NCBI GenBank assembly: GCA_043817155.1
Contig: JBDRHE010000075.1
Coordinates: 1-60,588, forward strand
DNA length: 60,588 nucleotides
Direction of reading: 5' to 3'
Origin: Candidatus Omnitrophota bacterium
Lineage (GTDB): Bacteria > Omnitrophota > Gorgyraeia > JABMRN01 > RBG-13-46-9
The notes beneath the pieces were generated by a model that saw nothing but the letters and a program-made list of their open reading frames with translations, was not told the DNA's origin and did not search any database. Of this stretch, positions 3,744-51,952 are shown piece after piece; within the stretch, counting starts at the first letter, position 1, and each line of letters opens with the position of its first letter. The position numbers were made by a program, and so were the translations under genes.

Positions 3744-3962
3744 CTCGAAGGACGCACGTTACGATAGACGAAGGACGATTCGTGATTCCTCGTCTTTGCG
3801 AAGTGCCGTAATATACTAAGCGCACTGAAGCATCTCAAACTAGCTCGAATGAGATTGCCTGCCTGCCCGCCAAAGCTTTTAAATGGCAGGCGGGCCTGCC
3901 AGTATATTTCGGGCAGGCAGGCTTCGGCACGCTCGAATATTCCGGTGCCTCGCAAAGACGAG
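3741..3962. repeat. Composite: GACGAAG-type arm, then F1 inverted repeat (3789-3962) with a 64-bp CCTGCCTGCC...GGCAGGCAGG hairpin at 3858-3921
   Basis: ctcgtctttgcga...gaagca and gagattg[insert]cttcggcacg...tcgcaaagacgag arms; the insert is identical to 7750-7813 and 7869-7932. Confidence 0.95.
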
Positions 3963-4476: not shown

Positions 4477-4800
4477 ACAAAAGTCTACAGACTATAGACT
4501 AGAGACTAATGTGAGTAAGAAGGTTTCTTAAGGTTTCATAAAGTTTCTTGACGTTGCTTAAGGTTGCAAGACGGAAATGGGATACGTTAATGGACGAAGG
4601 ACGATTCGAAGGACTTAGAGAGCTATAAGTCATAAGCCGTAAGCTATAAGTAATGTGATATGATTTGAGCTTATAGCTTAAGGCTTAGAGCTTAAAGCTG
4701 TTAGTACAAGATATATACTATTGAAATACAGTTGAAAATACTTGGAACATTCCGAAGCTATAAGAGACTATAGTCTTTGGTCTGTAGTCTATGTTCTATG
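4477..4800. repeat. Nested composite: outer AGACTAT/TAGTCT arms (about 4478-4510 and 4766-4795) around a GTTTCTTAAG 10-mer arm, a GACGAAG arm, an AGCTATA palindrome and a TTGAAATAC run
   Basis: Read directly; 4592-4730 is repeated at 10881-11019 with 5 mismatches. Confidence 0.9.
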
Positions 4801-4832: not shown

Positions 4833-5819
4833 ATGGCAAAGGTTTATCGAGACAAAGATGCTAATCTGGAACTGATCAAGAAGAAGGTGGTGGCTATTAT
4901 TGGGTATGGCATACAGGGACGGGGACAGGCTCTAAATCTTAGGGATTCAGGGATAAAGGTTATCGTAAGCGAGCTCGAAGGTACGCAGAATTACAGGAAT
5001 GCGGTAAAAGATAAATTCAAACCCGTTTCAGCAGACATCGCGGCAAAGAGCGCCGACATTATACAGATATTAACACAGGACCATGTACAGGCAAAGGTGT
5101 ACAAGTCAATGATCGAACCGAATCTAAAAACCGGGAAAGCCCTGGTATTTTCGCACGGTTTTAATATCCATTTTAAGCAGATCGTGCCACCAAAATATAT
5201 TGATGTGTTTATGATAGCACCGAAGGGACCGGGAGCTTTAGTCAGACAGCAGTATGAAGAAGGCAAAGGCGTACCGTGTCTGGTGGCTATATATCAAAAT
5301 CCCTCAGGAAAAGCCCTGAAACTGGCGCTGGCTTATGCTAAAGGTATTGGCGGAACAAGGGCAGGAGTAATTAAGACCACCTTCAAAGAGGAGACCGAGA
5401 CTGACCTGTTTGGTGAACAAGCAGTTCTATGCGGTGGGGCATCGGAGCTTATTAAAGCCGGATTCGATACCCTGGTGAATGCCGGATATCAGCCGGAAAT
5501 TGCATATTTTGAGTGTCTTCACGAATTGAAACTGATAACGGATCTTATCTACAGATACGGTATTCAGGGTATGAGAAAGAGGGTTTCGGATACTGCAGAA
5601 TACGGGGATCTCAGCAGAGGAAGAAGGATAATTACACAGGAGACCCGGAAAGCCATGAAGACTATGCTAAGGGAAGTTCAGACAGGGAAATTCGCTAAAG
5701 AGTGGATAAAAGAGAATAGCAAAGGAAGGCCCCGGTTCAACAAATGGTCAAAAGCGGATGACAGGCATCCGGTAGAGGTGGTAGGCAAGAAACTCCGCAA
5801 GATGATGCCGTGGCTCTAA
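4833..5819 (+). CDS. ilvC: Ketol-acid reductoisomerase
   Basis: 328 aa; [20 protein letters not shown] and [16 protein letters not shown] motifs. Confidence 0.97.
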
Positions 5820-5833
5820 CGCTAGATAATTAA

Positions 5834-6121
5834 GCTACGATAGACGAAGGACGTGGGACGATTCGCTCTATCTCGTCTTTGCGAGGTGCCGTAAATAAAT
5901 TAGCGCACCGAAGCAAACTTCTGTCATCCCCGCGCAAGCGGGGATCCAGAGTGAACTCGTTGAGAGTGCATCCATGGATTCCCGCTTCCGCGGGAATGAC
6001 AACTTTAGATTGCTTCGGCACGTTCGAATATTCCGGTGCCTCGCAAAGACGGATAGGAGAAGATCTAATCGTCCATCGTCCAAGCGACCGTAAGGGAGCG
6101 GACGTCCGTCGTCCTTCGTAA
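5834..6121. repeat. Three-layer composite: GACGAAG arms (5834-5862, 6067-6121) around F1 arms (5872-5915, 6007-6050) around an F2 GTCATCCCCGCG...CGGGAATGAC palindrome (5923-6000)
   Basis: Each layer is bounded by its own inverted arms; a small extra hairpin-like insert gcgaccgtaagggagcg sits in the right outer arm. Confidence 0.95.
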
Positions 6122-7654: not shown

Positions 7655-7998
7655 AACGCAGATCGGCACAGGCTGTATTTCTCGTCTTTGCGAGGTGCCG
7701 TAAATAGCTGAGCGCACCGAAGCAATCTCAAACTAGCTCGATGAGATTGCCTGCCTGCCCGCCAAAGCTTTTAAATGGCAGGCGGGCCTGCCAGTATATT
7801 TCGGGCAGGCAGGCTTCGGCACGCTCGAATATTCCGGTGCCTCGCAAAGACGAGGAAAGATGAGATTGCCTGCCTGCCCGCCAAAGCTTTTAAATGGCAG
7901 GCGGGCCTGCCAGTATATTTCGGGCAGGCAGGCTTCGGCACGCTCGAATCTTACGGTGCCTCGCAAAGACGAGTTAAGCATCTGCGCTCATCTGTGTT
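7655..7998. repeat. CACAGAT/ATCTGTG outer arms around F1 with a tandemly duplicated right arm, each copy carrying the 64-bp insert
   Basis: F1 left arm 7681-7729; right arms 7743-7854 and 7862-7973. Confidence 0.95.
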
Positions 7999-8866: not shown

Positions 8867-9633
8867 TAATTATAGCTCTATTTATCGCAGGTACAATCAT
8901 AGGCAGCTTCATGAATGTATGTATTTACAGGTTGCCCGGAGGTGAGTCCATAATAAAGCCGCGGTCGCGGTGCATCTCTTGTGGTAAAGCGATAGCATGG
9001 TTTGACAACATTCCCATTTTGAGTTTCCTTGCGCTGCGTGGCAGGTGTAGATCCTGCAAGAAGACGATCTCCATCAGGTATCCGATAGTCGAGATCATAT
9101 CAGGGATTATGTGCGCTTTGCTCTTTACGTACTTTGGATTTACAGCAAAGTCTTTTATACTCCTGGTCTTTTCGTGCGCGCTTGTCGTAGTGTCATTTAT
9201 AGACTTTGCTATCCAGGAGATACCGGATGTTATCACATTGCCCGGCATTGTCATAGGATTGATATCGGCAGCGCTCTTTCCGTCTCTGGTAGGCAGCCCC
9301 GATAATATATCTGCATTCTTCAACTCTTTTCTGGGGGTCCTGGCCGGCGGAGGAACGATATACATACTTGGATTTGTAGGCGAGTTTATATTTAAGAAAG
9401 AGGCAATGGGCGGGGGCGACGTTAAGCTCCTGGCGATGATAGGCGCGTTCATCGGGTGGAAACTGGCCATATTTACCTTCTTTTTGGCACCCTTCTTCGG
9501 CGCTGCAGTGGGGATCACACTGAAGCTAAAAGATGGCAGGGAGATAATACCCTACGGCCCATATCTTTCGCTTGCAGCTATCGTTGCAATATTTTACGGC
9601 GATGCGGTTATTGGGAAACTGTTTATTCTGTAA
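8863..9633 (+). CDS. pilD: Prepilin peptidase
   Basis: GSFMNVCIYRLP, two CxxC pairs, IDFAIQEIPD, MGGGDVKL and IPYGPYL. Start placed at ATG 8863, overlapping the aroE stop. Confidence 0.93.
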   Translation: MIIIALFIAGTIIGSFMNVCIYRLPGGESIIKPRSRCISCGKAIAWFDNIPILSFLALRGRCRSCKKTISIRYPIVEIISGIMCALLFTYFGFTAKSFILLVFSCALVVVSFIDFAIQEIPDVITLPGIVIGLISAALFPSLVGSPDNISAFFNSFLGVLAGGGTIYILGFVGEFIFKKEAMGGGDVKLLAMIGAFIGWKLAIFTFFLAPFFGAAVGITLKLKDGREIIPYGPYLSLAAIVAIFYGDAVIGKLFIL

Positions 9634-9696
9634 GTAGCGAGTAGAGAGTAGCAAGTAGCGAGAATTTCGCTAATCTCTACTTGCTACTCGCTACTT
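9632..9696. repeat. AGTAGCG/AGTAGAG 7-mer periodic palindrome (F5)
   Basis: agtagcgagtagagagtagcaagtagcgaga, loop, ctctacttgctactcgctact; also at 27912, 37289 and 40861. Confidence 0.93.
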
Positions 9697-9728
9697 TCGA
9701 AATCATTTGTTATAGGAAGGAGTCCAGT

Positions 9729-10865: not shown

Positions 10866-11361
10866 GCTACGTAAGACGTGGGACGAAGGACGATTCGAAG
10901 GACTTAGAGAGCTATAAGCCATAAGCCGTAAGCTATAAGCAATGTGATATGATTTGAGCTTATAGCTTAAGGCTTAAAGCTTAAAGCTGTTAGCACAAGA
11001 TATATACCATTGAAATACATTGATATGCAATTGAGATACATTGAAATACGGTGGATGATATGTACTACTCGTCTTTGCGAAGTGCCGTAAATAAGTTAGC
11101 GTACCGAAGCAATGCTCCACTCGTCTTTGCGAGGTGCCGTAATATACTAAGCGCACTGAAGCATAATTTGTCATTCCCGCGCAAGCGGGAATCCATGGAT
11201 GCACTCTCGATGAGTCAACTCTGGATCCCCGCTTTCGCGGGGATGACATGTGAGAAATAAGGGAATGACACGATATGAAGGTATCCACGGCGATTATTTA
11301 CATGGAAATAAATGGAAGATCTAATCGTCCATCGTCGGCACGTCCGTCGTCCTTTGTAACG
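10866..11361. repeat. About 500-bp composite: GACGAAG arms around an AGCTATA palindrome, a 10-mer TTGAAATAC run, two F1 left arms (11068-11113, 11120-11163) and an inverted F2 (11170-11247)
   Basis: Read directly; each module recurs elsewhere in the window. Confidence 0.93.
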
Positions 11362-15795: not shown

Positions 15796-16146
15796 CTCGA
15801 AGGAGTAACGTTACGACGGACGTAAGACCCTCCTTCGCTTGGCAGGAAGAATCTCATGGAAGTGGGCTACGGAGGGCAAGTGTGGGAAGAAGGACGATTA
15901 GCGCTATCTCGTCTTTGCGAGGTGCCGTTAATAGGTAAGCGTACCGAAGCAATTTGTCATTCCCGCGGAAGCGGGAATCCAGGCGGAAATGACAAATACA
16001 TTAGAAAGATACACTTCTGGATCCCCGCTTCCGCGGGGATGACAGAATAGTGGAGATTGCTTCCTCCTTCGCCACATTGCTTCTGCGTGTGGCTTGGGAG
16101 AGACAAGCCGGCACGTTCGAATTTTCCGGTGCCTCGCAAAGACGAG
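15793..16146. repeat. Composite: GACG-type arm with a REP-like insert (15829-15881), F1 left arm (15908), F2 (15956-16043) and F1 right arm with a second REP-like insert (16064-16109)
   Basis: The interrupted host motifs can be rebuilt from intact copies (cgtaagacgtgggacg at 10870; gagattgcttcggcacg at 17619/44222). Confidence 0.92.
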
Positions 16147-17514: not shown

Positions 17515-17757
17515 TATGACGGACGATGGACGAAAGACGATGGACGATTCAATTCCCTCGTCTTTGCGAGGCACCGTAAAATTCGAGCGTGCCGAAGCAA
17601 TCTCATTCGAGCTAGTTTGAGATTGCTTCGGTGCGCTAACCTGTTTACGGCACCTCGCAAAGACGAGATAGCGCGAATCACCCTTTGTCCCTCTTCCATC
17701 ATCCATCTTAAGTTTACTATTAAATTCACGTCTCATGTGTCTTGTGTCCTTGTGTCG
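17515..17757. repeat. GACGATG arms around an F1 in the opposite orientation (17557-17667), plus a CTTGTGTC arm
   Basis: The ggcac/gtgcc arm comes first and the ggtgc/gcacc arm second; empty loop. Confidence 0.92.
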
Positions 17758-22502: not shown

Positions 22503-22700
22503 ACTAAAGACTAAAAACTATAGACCATCGTTCGTGTCCAAATGAGTTGTACCATATCGACGGAAATAGCGTTTTGACATTCGAAACTTTGTCATGACTG
22601 CTTTTCTCACATGTCATCCCCGCGCAAGCGGGGATCCAGGCGAGAGTTTTGTCTGGATTCCCGCTTCCGCGGGAATGACAAAAAGCTAATTTGGACAGCA
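22502..22700. repeat. AGACTA-type arm and a free-standing F2 palindrome (22613-22679) inside a short gtccaaat/atttggac inverted repeat
   Basis: gtcatccccgcgcaagcggggatcc ... ggattcccgcttccgcgggaatgac. Confidence 0.9.
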
Positions 22701-26753: not shown

Positions 26754-26866
26754 AAAAACCAAAGACCAAAAGGTAAAAACCAAAAACACATATTAAATAT
26801 GAAAAAATATTTTTTTTGCATTTTTGGTTTGTATTTTTGGTATTTGGTATTTAATTTTTAATTTTT
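26754..26866. repeat. AT-rich AAAACCA/TTTTGGT periodic palindrome (F7)
   Basis: Second copy at 31775-31905; shared core aaaacacatattaaatatg. Confidence 0.88.
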
Positions 26867-26879
26867 CGATAATTCGATC

Positions 26880-27917
26880 ATGAAAGACTATAAGCGTATA
26901 TTAATAGTCGAGGTAAACTGGCTGGGGGACGTTCTATTCTCCACCCCGCTCGTAAAGGCGATCCGCAAAAAATATAAAAACGCCTATATAGCCTGCATGG
27001 TTGTTCCCCGTTGCAGGCAGATCCTGGAATACAGCCCGTACATCGACGAGATCATAACCTATGACGAAAAAAAAACGCACAGAAGCTTGTTCGGTAAAAT
27101 ACGTTTGATCGCTATTCTGAGAAGAAGAGATTTCGATCTTGCTATACTGCTGCACAGGTCCTTTACAAGGGCCCTTATTGCGATGCTTGCGGGTATAAGG
27201 GAGCGTATCGGCTACATAACGGAGAAGGGACACAGGATGCTTACGCGCCCGATAGAGCCGCCCGAATCCCCGGTTCACAAGGTGGAGTATTTTTTGAAAC
27301 TGGCCGAGTCACTGGGATGCGATATATCTAATAAGGATTATGATTTTTTTATTAGCGACAGAGAGAGAGATCACATAAATAAGGAACTCTCTTTGGCCGG
27401 GATCGAAAAAGAGGACCTTCTGGTTGTAGTGAACCCGGGCGGCAATTGGCGATCAAAGAGGTGGAGCGAAGACAATTTCGCAAAGCTCTGCAAGGCGCTG
27501 TTTGAAAAATTTAATATAAAGATCGTGATATCGGGAGCGAAGAAGGATGTAGAGCTTGCTTCGCGAATAAAGGAGAAAGCAGGTCCTGATATATCGGTCT
27601 TTGCCGGCAAAACGGACCTAAAAGAACTGGGCGCTCTTATGGGGAGGGCCAATTTTGTTATTTCAGCCGATTCAGGACCTATGCATATAGCTGTAAGTAT
27701 GGGGTCGAATGTAATAGCTCTCTTTGGACCGACTTCTCCCGAGCTTACCGGTCCTTACGGGAACGGTAACTACAGGGTGATCCGGAAGAATACGGAGTGC
27801 GAAACCCCGTGTTACGACGTAACGTGTAATGACCATAGGTGCATGGATTCTATAACTGTAGAAGATGTGCTGGAGACGTTTGAAGAGATGTACTGTGCAC
27901 AGATGGGAAAGAAGTAG
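26880..27917 (+). CDS. waaF: GT9 lipopolysaccharide heptosyltransferase II-like protein
   Basis: VNWLGDV, HKVEYF, NPGG, KRW, DSGPMHIA and LFGPT. Confidence 0.85.
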   Translation: MKDYKRILIVEVNWLGDVLFSTPLVKAIRKKYKNAYIACMVVPRCRQILEYSPYIDEIITYDEKKTHRSLFGKIRLIAILRRRDFDLAILLHRSFTRALIAMLAGIRERIGYITEKGHRMLTRPIEPPESPVHKVEYFLKLAESLGCDISNKDYDFFISDRERDHINKELSLAGIEKEDLLVVVNPGGNWRSKRWSEDNFAKLCKALFEKFNIKIVISGAKKDVELASRIKEKAGPDISVFAGKTDLKELGALMGRANFVISADSGPMHIAVSMGSNVIALFGPTSPELTGPYGNGNYRVIRKNTECETPCYDVTCNDHRCMDSITVEDVLETFEEMYCAQMGKK

Positions 27918-27980
27918 AGAGTAGCAAGTAGCAAGTAGCGAGAAGGACTCTCTCTACTCTCTACTTGCTACTCGCTACTT
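27912..27980. repeat. F5 AGTAGCG periodic palindrome
   Basis: Matches 9632-9696; contains the stop codon of the upstream gene. Confidence 0.93.
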
Positions 27981-27989
27981 AAAGAAAAT

Positions 27990-28979
27990 ATGGCTAATAT
28001 TAACAAGTCTAAAGTTAACCGTATACTTGTCATAACCCTTTCGAACATAGGGGATATCATCCTGACCACCCCGGTCGTGGAAACTCTACTCCGGGAATTC
28101 CCGGGAGTAAGACTCGATGTTATGGTTGGCCCTAACGGAAAGGATCTCTTCGGTCCTCACAAGGGAATAGGGGAGATAATTATTTATGACAAGAGATCGT
28201 CTTCCCTGGATAAATTCAAGCTCTTTATCATGCTTAGAAAGAAGCGATATAATCTTGTCGCGGATCTGCGCAATACTATTTTACCTTTAGTGCTGGGCGC
28301 CAGGTTCAATACCAGCGCCATCAGGCGCGATTCCAAGAATGGGATGCATAGAAAAGATGTTCACCTTTCAAGATTAAGAGACTTGTCCATAGACACATCG
28401 CGCGGCAAATTTTATATCCCGGTCAGAGAAAAGGACAAAGAACGGGTGGGTGCTTTGCTCGGCGAACTTAAAGAGAGACCATATGTAGTGGTAAGTCCGG
28501 GCGCAAAGAGCCATGTTAAAAGATGGCCCTTGAAACACTTTGCAAAACTCTGCGATATGATAAAGATAAAACTCAGAGTTGATGTCGTTCTTATAGGAGA
28601 CGAGAGCGACAGGGTCGTTATAGAAAGAATTCTCTTTAATGCCGAGACGAAGCCGCTTAACCTTATAGATAAAACAAATATAGGCGAGCTCGCTTACATG
28701 ATCAAAAGGTCGAAACTATTGATCACTAATGACAGCGCTCCTTTGCATGTGGGTAGCGCAGTCAATGCGCCGACGGTCGTCTTTTTTGGCCCTACCGATG
28801 ACCGGAAATACGGCCCTTTGACAGAATCCGGAAGCAGAGTGCTTAAGAAGAAGCTGAAGTGCTCGCCCTGCGAAGTACCGCAATGCATAAACTACGATAA
28901 CAAATACGAATGCCTGAAGACGATTACTGTTGAAGAGGCCTTTGAAGCTGTTAAGGAGCTATTGGATAGCGCTACATAG
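27990..28979 (+). CDS. GT9 family glycosyltransferase
   Basis: LSNIGDIIL, SPGAK, KRWP, NDSAPLH and FFGPT. Confidence 0.9.
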   Translation: MANINKSKVNRILVITLSNIGDIILTTPVVETLLREFPGVRLDVMVGPNGKDLFGPHKGIGEIIIYDKRSSSLDKFKLFIMLRKKRYNLVADLRNTILPLVLGARFNTSAIRRDSKNGMHRKDVHLSRLRDLSIDTSRGKFYIPVREKDKERVGALLGELKERPYVVVSPGAKSHVKRWPLKHFAKLCDMIKIKLRVDVVLIGDESDRVVIERILFNAETKPLNLIDKTNIGELAYMIKRSKLLITNDSAPLHVGSAVNAPTVVFFGPTDDRKYGPLTESGSRVLKKKLKCSPCEVPQCINYDNKYECLKTITVEEAFEAVKELLDSAT

Positions 28980-29370
28980 GACGAAGGATGATTTGACGAT
29001 ACCGGAAATACGATTGATATACAATTGAAATACATTGAAATGCGATGGAGATACGATTGAAATATGGTGGAAATGCAATCGAAGCTACATTACTCGTCTT
29101 TGCGAGGCACCGTAAATAGCTGAGCGCATTAAAACGACTTCTCTTCGTCTTTGCGAGGAACCTATGAAAGCTTTATGTTCCGAAGCAATCTCAGACTTCT
29201 GTCATCCCCGCGCAAGCGGGGATCCAGAGTGAACTCGTTGAGAGTACATCCATGGATTCCCGCTTCCGCGGGAATGACAACTTTAGATTGCTTCGGCACG
29301 CTCGAATCTTACGGTGCCTCGCAAAGACGAGGGAAAATCTAATCGTCCATCGTCCGTCATCCATTGTAAC
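28975..29370. repeat. Composite: GACGAAG arms around a 10-mer TTGAAATAC run, two F1 left arms (29093, 29145), F2 (29201-29278) and an F1 right arm ending at 29331
   Basis: The F2 plus right arm is nearly identical to 5923-6050. Confidence 0.93.
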
Positions 29371-30763: not shown

Positions 30764-31777
30764 ATGAAAGGACAAAATTTCAAGAAGCTGAAGAGCGTTA
30801 TTTCCAACTTTAATGACAAGAAGATACTTGTCATAGGGGACCTTATCCTGGATGAGTTTATATGGGGAAAGGTCTCTCGCATATCGCCCGAGGCGCCCGT
30901 CCCGATTGTCTGGGCGCAGAGCGAGAGCTTCATGCCGGGCGGAGCTTCTAACGTTGCAAACAATATAAATTCGCTTGGCGGCAAGGCTTATATGGTAGGT
31001 GTGGTTGGCAATGATGACCGTGCAGGCATCTTAAAAGGGGAGCTTGAGCGCAGGGGTGTTAATGTGGATGGTATATTTTCGGATGCCCAAAGGCCCACGA
31101 TCCTTAAAACACGGGTAATAGCCCATCAGCAGCAGGTTGTCCGTATTGACCGGGAAAAGACAGAGCCTGTAAGCGACCGGATATTAAGGAAACTTACGGA
31201 CTACATAGAGAACATAATAGACAGCATGGATGCGCTGATCGTGGAAGACTACGGGAAAGGGTTAATTACCCCGAAGCTTCTCGATAAGATAGTACCCCTG
31301 GCGAAGAGAAAGAAGAAGATCATAGCTGTCGATCCCAAGGAAGAGCACTTCTCTTTTTACAAGGGAGTTACGCTCTTAACCCCGAATAACGCGGAGGCTT
31401 CCCGCGCTGTAGGATTCGAAATAAAAGACAAAGCAACGCTAAAGAGAGCCGGCAGTGAACTTCTGAAAAAGCTAAAAGCGCGCATAGTTCTGATCACACT
31501 CGGTGAAGATGGGATGATGCTGTTTGATGACGGGAAGCCGGCCAGGAAGATAGAGACCATTGCCCAGGAAGTCTTCGATGTCTCAGGAGCCGGCGATACC
31601 GTTATAAGCAGCTATACTCTTTCACTGATTTCAGGCGCCAGTACGATCCAGGCAGCTCATATTGCCAATTGCGCTGCGGGGATAGTCGTAGGCAAGGTCG
31701 GTATAGCCGTCGTGACTCAGGACGAGGTCATTATGAGGATTAAAGAGGAGATCGAAAAGCCGAGGGAACGAACTTAA
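30764..31777 (+). CDS. rfaE1: D-glycero-beta-D-manno-heptose-7-phosphate kinase (RfaE domain I)
   Basis: GDLILDEF, RISPEAPVP, PGGASNVA, TPNNAEA and DVSGAGDTV. Confidence 0.93.
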   Translation: MKGQNFKKLKSVISNFNDKKILVIGDLILDEFIWGKVSRISPEAPVPIVWAQSESFMPGGASNVANNINSLGGKAYMVGVVGNDDRAGILKGELERRGVNVDGIFSDAQRPTILKTRVIAHQQQVVRIDREKTEPVSDRILRKLTDYIENIIDSMDALIVEDYGKGLITPKLLDKIVPLAKRKKKIIAVDPKEEHFSFYKGVTLLTPNNAEASRAVGFEIKDKATLKRAGSELLKKLKARIVLITLGEDGMMLFDDGKPARKIETIAQEVFDVSGAGDTVISSYTLSLISGASTIQAAHIANCAAGIVVGKVGIAVVTQDEVIMRIKEEIEKPRERT

Positions 31778-31905
31778 AACCAAAAACCAAATACTAAAAA
31801 CAAAAAACACATATTAAATATGTAAAAACTTGGTAAATTACAAATTAAAGATTTTAAAATTTTTGGTTTGTGTTTTTAACTTTTGGTATTTAATTTTTAA
31901 TATTT
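31775..31905. repeat. F7 AT-rich periodic palindrome, copy 2
   Basis: Homologous to 26754-26866. Confidence 0.88.
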
Positions 31906-31943
31906 CATTAAAGCTACACAAGCTGTAAAGAAAGGTTAGAGCA

Positions 31944-34535: not shown

Positions 34536-34850
34536 AAGCTACGAAGGGCGTGGGATGATTAGCACTATCTCGTCTTTGCGAGGTGCCGTAAATAAATTAG
34601 CGCACCGAAGCCCCGCCGCATGTTTCGCATAGCGGGATCCCGCCATACGAGAGTAACGGCGGGACAATCTCAAACTTCTGTCATCCCCGCGAAAGCGGGG
34701 ATCCAGAATAGGCGCGTAGAGAGTCCATCCATGGATTCCCGCTTACGCGGGAATGACAAGATGCATTAACCTGAGAATACTTCGGCACGCTCGAATCTTA
34801 CGGTGCCTCGCAAAGACAGTTAGGTTAATATCTAGTCGTCCATCGTATCG
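34536..34850. repeat. Composite: GACG-type arms around F1 (34569-34817), with a 54-bp double hairpin in the left arm (34611-34664) and F2 (34680-34757) in the loop
   Basis: cgaag[cccgc...gcggg a tcccgcc...ggcggga]caatctc. Confidence 0.92.
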
Positions 34851-37288: not shown

Positions 37289-37422
37289 AAGTAGCAAGTA
37301 GAAAGTAGCCCTTCGCTTCGCTCAGGATCCCTCGAAGAATTCATCGAAGGATCCCGAGAGAATCGAGGGAGAAGTAGCGAGAATCTCTCTACTCTCTACT
37401 CTCTACTTGCTACTCGCTACTT
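37289..37422. repeat. F5 palindrome interrupted by a CCCTTCGCTTCGCTCAGG...TCGAGGGA hairpin cassette (about 37309-37370)
   Basis: Compared with intact F5 copies at 9632 and 27912. Confidence 0.88.
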
Positions 37423-37437
37423 TCGGAAAGAGATGTT

Positions 37438-37833
37438 ATGGTAAAGAAGCGATCTACATATGAGGGTTTACAAAAGAATATCCACCGGCTAAAGCTGCCG
37501 GTGATCGAAGTTTGGGAGAACCAGTATAAGAACAAGGCCTATAGCATCCATATGGAGACGAGCGAATTTACCTGCATATGTCCCAAAACGGGTCTCCCGG
37601 ATTTCGCAACTATATGCATAGATTATGAGCCGGACAGGTGGTGCGTGGAACTTAAGTCTTTCAAACTATATCTGTACAGATTTCGCGATATAGGCATCTT
37701 CCATGAGCATGTTGCTAACCGGATACTTGACGATTTTGTTGCAGCTTCAAAACCGCGCCTTGCCAGGATAAGAACCGAATTCAACATGCGCGGTGGAATA
37801 AAGACAACGGTGGAACGGACGTATAAGCGATAA
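37438..37833 (+). CDS. queF: PreQ0 reductase (short type I QueF)
   Basis: EFTCICPKTGLPDFA, VELKSFKLY, IFHE and RGGI. Confidence 0.95.
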   Translation: MVKKRSTYEGLQKNIHRLKLPVIEVWENQYKNKAYSIHMETSEFTCICPKTGLPDFATICIDYEPDRWCVELKSFKLYLYRFRDIGIFHEHVANRILDDFVAASKPRLARIRTEFNMRGGIKTTVERTYKR

Positions 37834-40860: not shown

Positions 40861-41034
40861 AAGTAGCGAGTAGAGAGTAGCAAGTAGCAAGAAAGACTCA
40901 CTCTACTCTCTGCTTGGCATTTTGAAGGATACGCTAAAAGAGATATATATACACAGATGAACAAGTAAGTAGCGAGAAGAGAGTAGCAAGTAGCAAGAAA
41001 GACTCACTCTACTCTCTGCTTGCTACTCGCTACT
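40861..41034. repeat. Two direct F5 copies separated by a 49-bp diverged copy of the aminotransferase 3' end
   Basis: 40912-40960 matches 44052-44100 at 46 of 49 positions. Confidence 0.92.
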
Positions 41035-41050
41035 TTAAAAAGAATAAAAA

Positions 41051-42322
41051 ATGAAGACGAGAATAAAGAACGTAGAAGATTGTACAAAAATATTGCAGGT
41101 AGAAATACCTGTAAACCTGGTCAAAGAGATGACAGAAGAGGTCTATAAGGAGATCAAGAAAGTCGCGAAGGTGCCCGGGTTCAGGACCGGGTTCGTGCCG
41201 CAGGATCTTCTCGAGAAACACTATTCGAAAGATGCCAGGGAAGATATTCTGAAAAGACTCATTCCCGAAGGCTATAAAAAGGCCTTAGAGAACCACAATG
41301 TTTCGCCTGTGAGTTTCCCGCGCGTCTTCAACATCAATTTTGAATCGGAAAAGCCGCTTACCTTTGAGGCCCAGGTCGACACCAGGCCGAGCTTCAAGTT
41401 GAAGAGCTATAAAGGCATAAAGGTCAAAAAGAAGAGGCTATCAGTTTCGAGCGAAGAACTTGATAGCGCGCTCTCTAGGTTGCAGAATACGAACGCAAAG
41501 TATAATGATGTCAAAAGGCCGATAGGGAAGGGAGATTACTCTGTTTGCGAGGTCGAGGCGTTTATTGATGGAAGATCGATAACCAAGAAGAACAAGAACA
41601 TGTGGATCATGGCGGATAAGGAAGGATCGATGCTCGGGCTTGGCGAAGAGCTTGTGGGCATGGAGAAGGGACAGACTAAAGAGATCGAGGCGAAGCTCCC
41701 GGATGATTATCCGGATAAGAAGTACGCCGGGAAGACCGCAAAGTTCAAGGTGCTTGTAAATGAAGTTAAGGAGAAGGATCTGCCGCCGCTTGACGACAAT
41801 CTAGCAAAGAGTATCAACATAGAGAGCCTGGACCAGCTAAAGAAAGAGATAGAAGCTCAACTTTTCGCGCGTAAGGAGATGAATCTAAAGATAGAGATGG
41901 AGAGTCAGATCATAGACAGACTCCTTAAGGATTATAAATTCTCGGTTCCGGCCAGCATGGCGGATAGGCAGAAGGAGGTTTTATCCAAGAGGATGGAATA
42001 TGAGCTTTCAAGGAGTGGTATTCAAAAAGACGATGTGGAAAAGAGAATCAAAGAATTGGATCCAAGGTTAAAGGAAGACGCCAAAGATAAGGTCAAGATA
42101 TATTTTGTCCTGGATGATATAGCAGCGAAGGAAGATATAAAAGTAGATGAGGCGGATATCGAAAGTCGCCTTACGTCTGTAGCCCAGTCTACGGGACGAT
42201 CTGTCGAAGATGTTAAAGAGCATTATGAGAAAGAGGATCTACTGGGTGGTTTAAGCGAAGAGATCAAGGAGGCCAAGGTCCTGGAATTCCTGCTCAAAGA
42301 AGCGGACGTGACTGAAGAATGA
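41051..42322 (+). CDS. tig: Trigger factor
   Basis: [10 protein letters not shown] ribosome-binding motif, FKBP-like middle domain with [17 protein letters not shown]; tig-clpP synteny. Confidence 0.95.
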
Positions 42323-44100: not shown

Positions 44101-44452
44101 GCACAGATGGGTAAGCTACGAAGGACGATGGACGAAGGACGAAGACGAATTGTAATTGCTCGTCTTTGCGAGGAACTTATGAAAGCTTTATGTTCCGAAG
44201 CAATCTCAAACTAGCTCGAATGAGATTGCTTCGGCACACTCGAATTTTACGGTGCCTCGCAAAGACAGGGTTAGATGAGATTGTCCCGTCACACGCAAGT
44301 AGCGTCGGGAAAGAAGAAAGCAAGCCAAAGTCTATAGTCTTCAGTCTGTAGTCTTTAGTCTATAGTCTGGCTTAGAGCTTAAGGCTAAATTTAATTTATT
44401 AGAATTCTGCGTCATTCGTGTTTAAACGTTAGATCTGTGCTAATCTGTAGTT
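44088..44452. repeat. Composite: CACAGAT outer arms around a GACGAAG arm, F1 (44159-44266), an orphan GAGATTG plus TCCCG...CGGGA hairpin (44284-44310), and TAGTCT and GCTTA arms
   Basis: Read directly. Confidence 0.9.
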
Positions 44453-49362: not shown

Positions 49363-49540
49363 GTCACAGATGAGCGCAGATTTTATTACAAGGCACTGTA
49401 ATACTCGAAACGTGACTAAGTAATTCCTGATTCGTCTTTGCGAGGCACCGAAATATTCGAGCGTGCCGAAGCAATCTCTGCGAGCTAGTCTGAGATTGCT
49501 TCGGTGCGCTAAGTGATTTACGGCACCTCGCAAAGACGAA
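49363..49540. repeat. CACAGAT arm plus an empty F1 in the inverted orientation (49431-49540)
   Basis: Same arrangement as 17557-17667. Confidence 0.92.
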
Positions 49541-51717: not shown

Positions 51718-51952
51718 TAGTTTAGCTTTCTAGCTTCTTAGCTTTTTAGCTTTTTAGGAAATTGTAGAAGTTTATTATCGATCAGAGCTTTAGCTTCTTA
51801 GCTTACTAGCTTTTTAGGAAATTTAATGTGAACAGAATCTTACCTAATAAGCTAACAAGCTAGGAAGCTAAGAAGCTAAAACGTTAATCAACTCAACCTG
51901 AGAAGCTAAAAAGCTAATGCTCTAAGTAGCTAGAATAGAAGCTAAAGCTCTG
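51718..51952. repeat. Double periodic palindrome (TAGCTTT/TAGCTTC versus AAGCTAA 7-mers)
   Basis: Two left arms (51718-51757, 51783-51817) and two right arms (51843-51880, 51898-51952). Confidence 0.9.

Follow-up and report, generated by a model that had tools for sequence, protein, structure and literature searches.

Small hairpin units at one bond of a nested intergenic palindrome in Candidatus Omnitrophota

Omnitrophota operons can carry three to four layers of nested palindromes between conserved, tightly linked genes. In one of these palindromes, the repeat F1, small hairpins of more than one family occupy the same bond of the repeat arm, GATTG^CTTCG. How did they come to lie at this position? 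A first-pass annotation, made from the sequence alone, had described them as unrelated hairpins inserted without target-site duplication, and had proposed that a site-specific enzyme, or several related ones, targets the repeat. We followed these hairpins through the window (the whole stretch of 60.6 kb that was analysed, itself a complete contig of 60,588 bases) and beyond it.

The long open reading frames of the window lie on the plus strand throughout, and the ∼50 genes are housekeeping genes only (Pfam on 40 open reading frames; synteny for the others). The gene set comprises ilv, leu and aro genes, dprA, topA, xerC, LPS and Kdo genes, que genes, tig-clpP, serA, purA, an H+-PPase, and isoprenoid genes. 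GC skew is uniform along the whole window (+0.10 to +0.16), which, together with the common strand of all genes, indicates that the contig lies on one replichore with its genes co-oriented with replication. A search against Rfam gave nothing at the gathering threshold and nothing at E ≤ 5, and a tRNA scan of the window was empty. A palindromic repeat of some kind is found in nearly every intergenic gap of the contig.

The nearest sequence to IlvC (4833–5819) is 84% identical, and the best named matches of IlvC are in Candidatus Omnitrophota. Two relatives with an IlvC of 83–84% identity (L108 and L109) keep the same gene order, ilvD-ilvB-ilvN-ilvC-leuA-aroE-pppA-aroC-aroK-dprA-topA-xerC-waaA, with gaps of 2–20 bp from which F1 is absent. 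In a further relative (L206), which also keeps the gene order, other palindromes built of heptamers fill the equivalent gaps, and there is no F1. F1 is specific to its lineage and, judged from these comparisons of gene order, is an invader of otherwise conserved operons.

F1 is an intergenic palindrome of ∼110 bp that reads, in order, CTCGTCTTTGCGAGG, an arm hairpin, CGAAGCAATCTC, a loop (AAACTAGCTCGAAT), GAGATTGCTTCG, an arm hairpin, and CCTCGCAAAGACGAG. The outer stem is made by CTCGTCTTTGCGAGG, the inner stem of 12 bp by CGAAGCAATCTC and GAGATTGCTTCG, and each arm carries one small hairpin. Folded as a single strand, the repeat reaches −45 kcal/mol (z = −11.6). The window contains 22 F1 arms; eight F1 copies are in orientation A and two in orientation B. 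The motif GAGATTG occurs 25 times in the window (10.6 expected), and GAGATTGCTTCGG, with up to two mismatches, 15 times (1.8 expected). F1 copies in the window include the following.

3789–3962: F1 (A) between ilvB and ilvN, with a cassette in the right arm
5872–6053: F1 (A), with an F2 dimer in place of the loop and part of the inner stem
7681–7854: F1 (A) after leuA, with a cassette at 7750–7813
7859–7973, plus strand: tandem second copy of the F1 right half (family D5), starting with GATGAGATTG and carrying a cassette at 7869–7932
15908–16146: F1 (A), its loop occupied by F2, carrying a 46-nt insert (16064–16109) at CTTC^GG
17557–17667: F1 (B), intact, both arms empty
29144–29331: F1 (A, variant left arm), its loop occupied by an F2 dimer; a degenerate left arm precedes it at 29093–29137
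34569–34817: F1 (A), with a 54-bp double hairpin in the left arm and a loop occupied by an F2 dimer
44159–44266: F1, intact, both arms empty, with the variant left-arm hairpin GGAAC...GTTCC
49431–49540: F1 (B), intact, both arms empty

The 5-bp arm hairpin exists in three compensating versions (GGCAC/GTGCC, GGTGC/GCACC, and GGAAC/GTTCC). In an alignment of the 22 arms (A1), 94.7% of cells are paired and three of the five pairs show double changes, whereas pairing falls to 30–54% in a control with slid partners, indicating that the local arm hairpins are real and under constraint. The compensatory changes (CG/UA/AU at pair 3 and AU/GC at pair 4) further indicate that the two arms of an element are more than inverted copies of one another, each arm keeping its own hairpin. 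Arms are also shuffled among F1 copies: the left arm at 3789 matches that at 11120 at 98%.

In the window, F1 is centred in an outer palindrome, ACGAAGGACGTGGGACGATT...AATCGTCCATCGTCC. This outer palindrome consists of degenerate heptamers (ACGAAGG ACGTGGG ACGATT...), for example at 5836–5871 with 6054–6091 and at 17530–17556 with 17668–17690. Since heptamer palindromes, unrelated in sequence, are also present in the equivalent gaps of L206 (4516–4655, 6139–6244, and 9477–9606), such palindromes appear to characterise these operons in general; they may have served as landing sites of F1. Other heptamer palindromes of the window (GTAGCGA/GTAGCAA/GTAGAGA; D7, D11, D13) lie just 5′ of start codons at 9628–9721, 27912–28005, 37356–37447, and 40861–41060. 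Further intergenic families are simple-periodic, namely AAAACCAAAGACC/TTTTTGGTTTG, ATATACCATTGAAATACATTGA, TAGCTTnTTAGCTT, and GTCTATAGTCTTCAGTC, with sites at 26755–26880 and 31756–31911; 4592–4750, 10881–11060, and 29006–29054; 51723–51823; and 44330–44360 and 4765–4790.

Evidence beyond the window came from a biofilm metagenome (X1), the sole public run with the window sequence (depth ∼3–6×), of which we compared Logan unitigs with intact and filled F1 copies. There, type-1 F1 arms reach a depth of ∼500–1000 against a genome depth of ∼3–6, pointing to hundreds of arms. Among the 22 arms of the window, ∼10 hold the intact sequence (G)AGATTG^CTTCGG, three carry a cassette, and one carries a double hairpin; a stub is one more case. 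The inserts at the bond are of at least two types.

3858–3921, plus strand: 64-bp cassette at GAGATTG^CTTCGG, composed of a 31-nt CCTGCC hairpin and a nested 33-nt unit (about 3862–3894)
34611–34664, minus strand: two tandem 27-nt TCCCG...CGGGA hairpins at CGAAG^CAATCTC, which is the G^C bond on the minus strand
44274–44310, plus strand: stub GATGAGATTG followed by the 27-nt hairpin TCCCGTCACACGCAAGTAGCGTCGGGA (44284–44310), placed after a complete F1, with no right arm

The coordinates and sequences of the inserts given in the first-pass annotation proved correct. The three cassettes (3858–3921, 7750–7813, and 7869–7932) read CCTGCCTGCC...GGCAGGCAGG, are identical at 64 of 64 positions, and each lie between GAGATTG and CTTCGG. 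They had been counted as separate cases; however, two of them belong to a tandem duplication (7741–7859 and 7860–7978) of a 119-bp unit made of half an F1 and the cassette. The two copies of this unit are identical at 118 of 119 positions, the single differing base being outside the element, and the three cassettes therefore do not represent three independent insertions. The cassette is uniform in the window while the arms that flank it vary.

In X1, the full cassette is contained in one unbranched unitig (3849–3923; depth 43, corresponding to ∼10 copies; 100% identity), which implies that all ∼10 copies are flanked by ATGAGATTG at one end and by CT at the opposite end. X1 also contains a simple 31-nt form, GAGATTG^CCTGCCTGCC-AGTATATTTCG-GGCAGGCAGG^CTTCGG, and a further form with the loop TTACTGCAGGT. 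The existence of the simple form indicates that the 64-bp cassette is the 31-nt hairpin plus a 33-nt unit, CCTGCCCGCC-N13-GGCAGGCGGG. The latter, located at 3862–3894, 7754–7786, and 7873–7905, can form two mutually exclusive stems, CCTGCC/GGCAGG or CCCGCC/GGCGGG, and a 30-nt look-alike adjoins a related repeat on an unrelated metagenome contig (L119:7227–7256). On the coding strand, the cassette holds a site that resembles an intrinsic terminator, TGGCAGGCGGGCCTGCCA followed by GTATATTT (3884–3911, 7776–7803, and 7895–7922).

A protein search with the cassette open reading frame gave no match, and a composite six-frame query gave a sole match, a protein of another Omnitrophota MAG contig (P0121; MFH1593491.1), a case known from the protein alone. 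This protein contains a translated F1 in which the 22-residue cassette peptide, unchanged, again lies at the G^C bond, in an arm that differs from that of the window (GTGKFGRAE versus GTVRFERAE). Its residues 1–65, annotated as the N terminus of a prepilin-type protein, are read-through of F1 and cassette, and the true start is probably near KGFTFLELL.

The nested layout could in principle stem from wrong paths through a repeat-rich assembly graph. With X1 coverage of ∼3–6× and hundreds of F1 copies, the content of single loci, such as the tandem copy at 7859–7973, may indeed be affected. As an explanation of the layout as a whole, an assembly artefact is nevertheless hardly credible: independent Logan unitigs hold the junctions at 100% identity (the unitig 3849–3923), the MAG protein deposited at NCBI translates the same junction, and the gene order agrees with that of relatives.

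The second type of insert is represented by the 54-bp double hairpin, which, as had been noted, occupies the G^C bond on the opposite strand. Read on the strand that carries GATTG, it consists of TCCCGCCGTTACTCTCGTATGGCGGGA and TCCCGCTATGCGAAACATGCGGCGGGG, of 27 nt each; both halves begin with TCCCGC, and they end with GGCGGGA (first) and GGCGGGG (second). The hairpin at 44284–44310 (TCCCGTC...GTCGGGA) directly follows a GAGATTG at 44277–44283, as originally described, but it belongs to a stub behind a complete F1 and no CTTCGG comes after it. The equal length and stem design of the 54-bp halves and of this hairpin indicate that these inserts are related. The description of all inserts as unrelated thus has to be narrowed: two are of one design, although at least two hairpin families do share the bond.

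The double TCCCG hairpin reaches a depth of 105–185 in X1 (roughly 20–30 copies). Upstream of it are at least three different arm hairpins, which diverge within 6–10 nt of the junction, and downstream there are two contexts, the F1 loop or the stub arrangement. The latter (about 44268–44310) recurs in X1 as a unit, and X1 variants such as CCGAAG^CCCCACCGCATGCTTC share the G^C bond.

At least two hairpin families of the window thus use the GATTG^CTTCG bond, on either arm, and both do so in a fixed orientation on the GATTG strand (GATTG^CCTGCCTGC... and GATTG^TCCCGCCG...). GATTG^ is constant across the junctions of the window and X1. In X1, both families amount to tens of copies; they are placed at the G^C bond throughout, keep one orientation, and recur in several arm backgrounds. 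Among the best-supported unitig ends listed for X1, GAGATTG is followed only by CTTCGG, CCTGCC..., TCCCGCC... or, once, unrelated DNA, and a hairpin of the opposite orientation does not occur at the bond. In the one case of unrelated DNA, an F1 is broken exactly at the bond, GAGATTG being joined directly to ATATTATGAAAA.... No filled and empty versions of one locus were seen in X1 at its ∼3–6× depth and with its short unitigs. Approximately 11 other intergenic GATTG sites of the window are all unoccupied, so the target seems to need the F1 context. Four of the five hairpin inserts lie 3′ of GATTG on the plus strand.

Each junction is ambiguous by one base and can be read as G^C or C^T. An equally good reading of the CCTGCC type is a 62-bp element flanked by a 2-bp duplication of GC, GATT-GC-[CTGCC...GGCAG]-GC-TTCGG, in which the duplication would be a 2-bp copy of a palindromic target. 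For the TCCCG type, a target duplication of at least 2 bp is excluded. The proposed lack of a target-site duplication therefore holds for the TCCCG type at this resolution, whereas the CCTGCC type fits a GC duplication equally well. Pairing within each insert starts at the first base and ends at the last, so that the ends of the insert are perfect inverted repeats. In folds of the composites, the inserts form hairpins of their own that join the F1 stem at a three-way junction and leave it otherwise intact.

Three other descriptions of the site were tried and dropped. A TG^C target rule that would also cover the nested 33-nt unit was abandoned because that junction is ambiguous over seven positions, and foldback or templated synthesis because inserts and flanks have no sequence in common. 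Integron attC and Xer/dif-like sites were rejected because a G^TT box is missing and the arm hairpin does not correspond to a dif of 28 bp.

Other inserts use other positions of F1. The 46-nt insert at 16064–16109 (CTCCTTCGCCACATTGCTTCTGCGTGTGGC...) occupies the CTTC^GG position of a right arm, 4 nt beyond the G^C bond in the 3′ direction; a second ATTGCTTC is found within it, and the insert recurs elsewhere in X1 with one change. F2 elements lie in F1 loops, and their edges are variable.

F2 is an inverted dimer of TGTC-ATTCCCGC-GCAA-GCGGGAAT-CCA units. Its arms show the features of CGTC-tagged REPs: a TGTC tag, an 8-bp stem starting with AT, a 4-nt loop, and a CCA tail. REPs of the CGTC-1/dRS3 type occur in Neisseria, Rickettsia, and Alphaproteobacteria.

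5918–6007, 11165–11254, 15951–16050, 22608–22686, 29196–29285, and 34675–34764: F2 copies, five of them in F1 loops
22608–22686: the F2 copy standing alone, an inverted dimer of CGTC-1/dRS3-type REPs

F2 translates to the spurious peptides VIPAKAGIQ, SSPRKRGSR, and WIPASAGMT. Because of spurious open reading frames and false N termini such as that of MFH1593491.1, repeats of the F1 type matter for gene calling; nested as they are, they also matter for MAG assembly.

F1 has relatives in a wider family built as GTC(A/T)TTGCGAG...CGAAGCAATC...GATTGCTTCG...CTCGCAA(A/T)GAC, with the core GCAATC(C/T)...(A/G)GATTGC. Members (loci L010, L014, L016, L026, L066, L073, L081, L098, L103, and L110–L182) come from Alphaproteobacteria, Chloroflexi, Bacteroidota, Rhodothermales, and Omnitrophota and from soil, sediment, and freshwater metagenomes, and the bases that flank the core covary (CGAAG/CTTCG, CGCGG/CCGCG, and CGTGG/CCACG). 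A scan of genome contigs with the 15-mer CTCGTCTTTGCGAGG returned mostly scattered single matches; among the matches listed were repeat relatives in L103, several Alphaproteobacteria, Chloroflexi, and Bacteroidota, and no F1 of this species. In metagenomes, a right-arm pattern specific to 31 bases gave no match, and a looser pattern gave 73 wider-family loci without F1 proper. All 23 matches of a viral-contig scan for GAGATTGCCTGCCTGC were unrelated coding sequence, which corresponds to chance level, and a literature search by sequence motif returned primers only. Screens of the wider family for inserts by regular expression and stem continuity were too noisy to yield a rate. One unrelated metagenome contig (L113) carries a CCTGCC hairpin at the equivalent bond, CGAAG^CCTGCCTACCGCAGGCAGG^CAATC.

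We propose that very small non-autonomous hairpin units are inserted in trans into F1. The units would be of the CCTGCC...GGCAGG type (about 27–31 nt) and the TCCCG(C)C...GGCGGGA type (27 nt), and they would enter at one phosphodiester bond of the inner stem, 5′-GATTG^CTTCG-3′, in a single orientation relative to the strand carrying GATTG. They could stack in tandem or nest in one another, as the 64-bp cassette may exemplify, and we infer an enzyme that cleaves and rejoins DNA at this bond. After insertion, local duplication and recombination among F1 copies would multiply the composite halves further.

The use of one bond by at least two families, the fixed orientation, the several arm backgrounds, the abundance of empty sites, and the one truncation together favour site-specific cleavage and joining, and we consider it somewhat more probable than not that such a process fits the pattern better than chance or simple descent does. 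Of the earlier proposal of site-specific targeting, what stands as observation is the site-specific, strand-oriented association of hairpins with the GATTG^CTTCG bond in the window and in X1. Several findings count against our proposal: no gene for such an enzyme lies in the window, filled and empty versions of one locus were not seen at the low depth of X1, the 46-nt insert and F2 use other positions of F1, and the ∼70 wider-family elements from other metagenomes yielded one case at this bond.

A shared bond might alternatively reflect descent. Each hairpin could have been acquired once or a few times, by any mechanism, and the F1 halves carrying it could have spread as composite subfamilies through duplication, amplification, and recombination or gene conversion. 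The tandem 119-bp duplication, which includes the arm, the shuffling of arms between copies, and the recurrence of the stub arrangement as a unit in X1 all agree with such a history. Because the copied unit is visibly half an F1 with its cassette, common descent and recombination could explain part of the pattern, and part of it certainly arose by later duplication and recombination of composite halves. As an account of the whole, however, descent is possible but improbable in our estimate. With at least two families, and L113 in another lineage, at one bond, it needs several independent hits on one of ∼56 symmetric positions. Moreover, the double hairpin is found in at least three arm backgrounds that diverge close to the junction, the cassette is identical where the arms differ, and one F1 is truncated exactly at the bond.

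Selection for the F1 fold may also filter the positions at which inserts are seen. If F1 were a folded RNA or DNA signal (e.g. a terminator, an mRNA stabiliser, or a protein-binding cruciform), random helices would survive only where they leave the fold intact. The covariation of the arm hairpins, the integrity of all F1 helices despite the inserts, the single strand of the genes with the predominance of orientation A, and the terminator-like hairpin within the cassette are in line with this idea. Nevertheless, we regard selection as the source of the pattern as quite unlikely. The bond is midway along a 12-bp helix, whereas the places that usually tolerate additions are loops and junctions; the hairpins have no nearby sequence source; identical hairpins recur in many copies and in fixed orientation; and Rfam holds no match.

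If insertion by cleavage and joining is the preferred reading, which enzyme could perform it? Neither a transposase of any kind nor, specifically, a Y1 HUH or RAYT gene was found in the window (Pfam on 40 open reading frames and synteny). An enzyme specific for single strands, similar to the HUH enzymes (IS200/IS605, RAYT) to whose chemistry the first-pass annotation had likened the insertions, is one candidate, unlikely if taken on its own. IS110-type insertion leaves a repeated 2-bp core, and by analogy a recombinase of this type may fit the CCTGCC type. In its broadest form, our proposal is that hairpin units of 27–33 nt home strand-specifically to GATTG^CTTCG in the stem of a host palindrome, stack and nest there, and are moved by an undiscovered enzyme acting on folded single strands, which possibly also mobilises untagged or CGTC-type REP-like repeats of many phyla; this we offer tentatively, as a rather doubtful idea. 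How REP-like hairpins spread without a RAYT is a long-standing question; it concerns CGTC repeats, dRS3, cyanobacterial small dispersed repeats (SDRs; Elhai et al. 2008, Genome Res 18:1484, cited in PMC3116915), and many untagged stem-loops. Here, the event can be stated at the resolution of a single bond, which makes for a concrete search for a gene whose product cuts GATTG^C in folded F1 DNA.

REP-like hairpins are small, G+C-rich, intergenic, present in high copy number, and often arranged as inverted dimers (Di Nocera, De Gregorio & Rocco 2013, BMC Genomics 14:522, PMC3733652). REP units sit at a fixed point of a larger palindrome in the A. variabilis GTAG-15, T. roseum GTAG-23, and H. neapolitanus CGTC-1 repeats, and CGTC repeats lack a dedicated transposase (PMC3733652). 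The Omnitrophota elements resemble these in that small intergenic hairpins are nested in a larger palindrome, and F2 fits the CGTC-1/dRS3 type. In contrast, the hairpins at the G^C bond have neither a GTAG nor a CGTC tag, lie inside a helix of the host repeat and not at its centre, share one bond among at least two families, and leave abundant host repeats empty; Omnitrophota are not among the phyla covered in PMC3733652. F1 itself has an outer tag like that of CGTC REPs (CTCGTC) but a different build.

The SDR4–6 repeats of Nostoc/Anabaena are reportedly hairpin units of 21–27 nt that appear to be mobile; they are said to be nested in longer repeats, with no obvious target duplication, in heptamer-rich genomes. 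Size (27 nt), hairpin shape, and nesting are similar here. SDRs reportedly also vary in presence among orthologous loci of close strains; here, the nearest relatives (IlvC 83–84% identical) are devoid of F1. The sequences and the phylum differ, the target is a single bond with fixed strand orientation, and the Omnitrophota units stack in tandem and nest, up to 64 bp.

Insertion by a short motif (GATTG^), strand-specific orientation, and hairpins are shared with IS200/IS605, PATE, and REP/RAYT systems. A target duplication of at least 2 bp is absent from the TCCCG type, and the CCTGCC type is equally compatible with a 2-bp duplication of GC. Unlike the asymmetric, subterminal-hairpin ends of IS200/IS605, however, the inserts are complete hairpins, and they differ from RAYT substrates in beginning with CCTGCC or TCCCG directly after GATTG, without a GTAG tag. 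Compared with MITEs, inverted termini are present, a parent IS was not seen in the window, and a target duplication is lacking in the TCCCG type (none of at least 2 bp) and would not exceed 2 bp in the CCTGCC type.

IS1397 and ISKpn1 are reported to insert in PU loops and the IS110-family elements ISPpu9/10 in REPs (Tobes & Pareja 2006; PMC12288879). Homing to a defined position of a palindrome is common to these insertion sequences and the hairpins described here, and the 2-bp core of IS110 would match the GC...GC around the CCTGCC type. However, those elements measure 1–1.5 kb and encode their own recombinase, whereas the units at the G^C bond are 27–64 nt long and non-coding. The closest known elements are REP-like hairpins in larger palindromes and the cyanobacterial SDRs, so that the kind of element is known and its mechanism unsolved; new here are the phylum, the sequences, the position within a helix, the sharing of one bond by several families, and the many empty sites.
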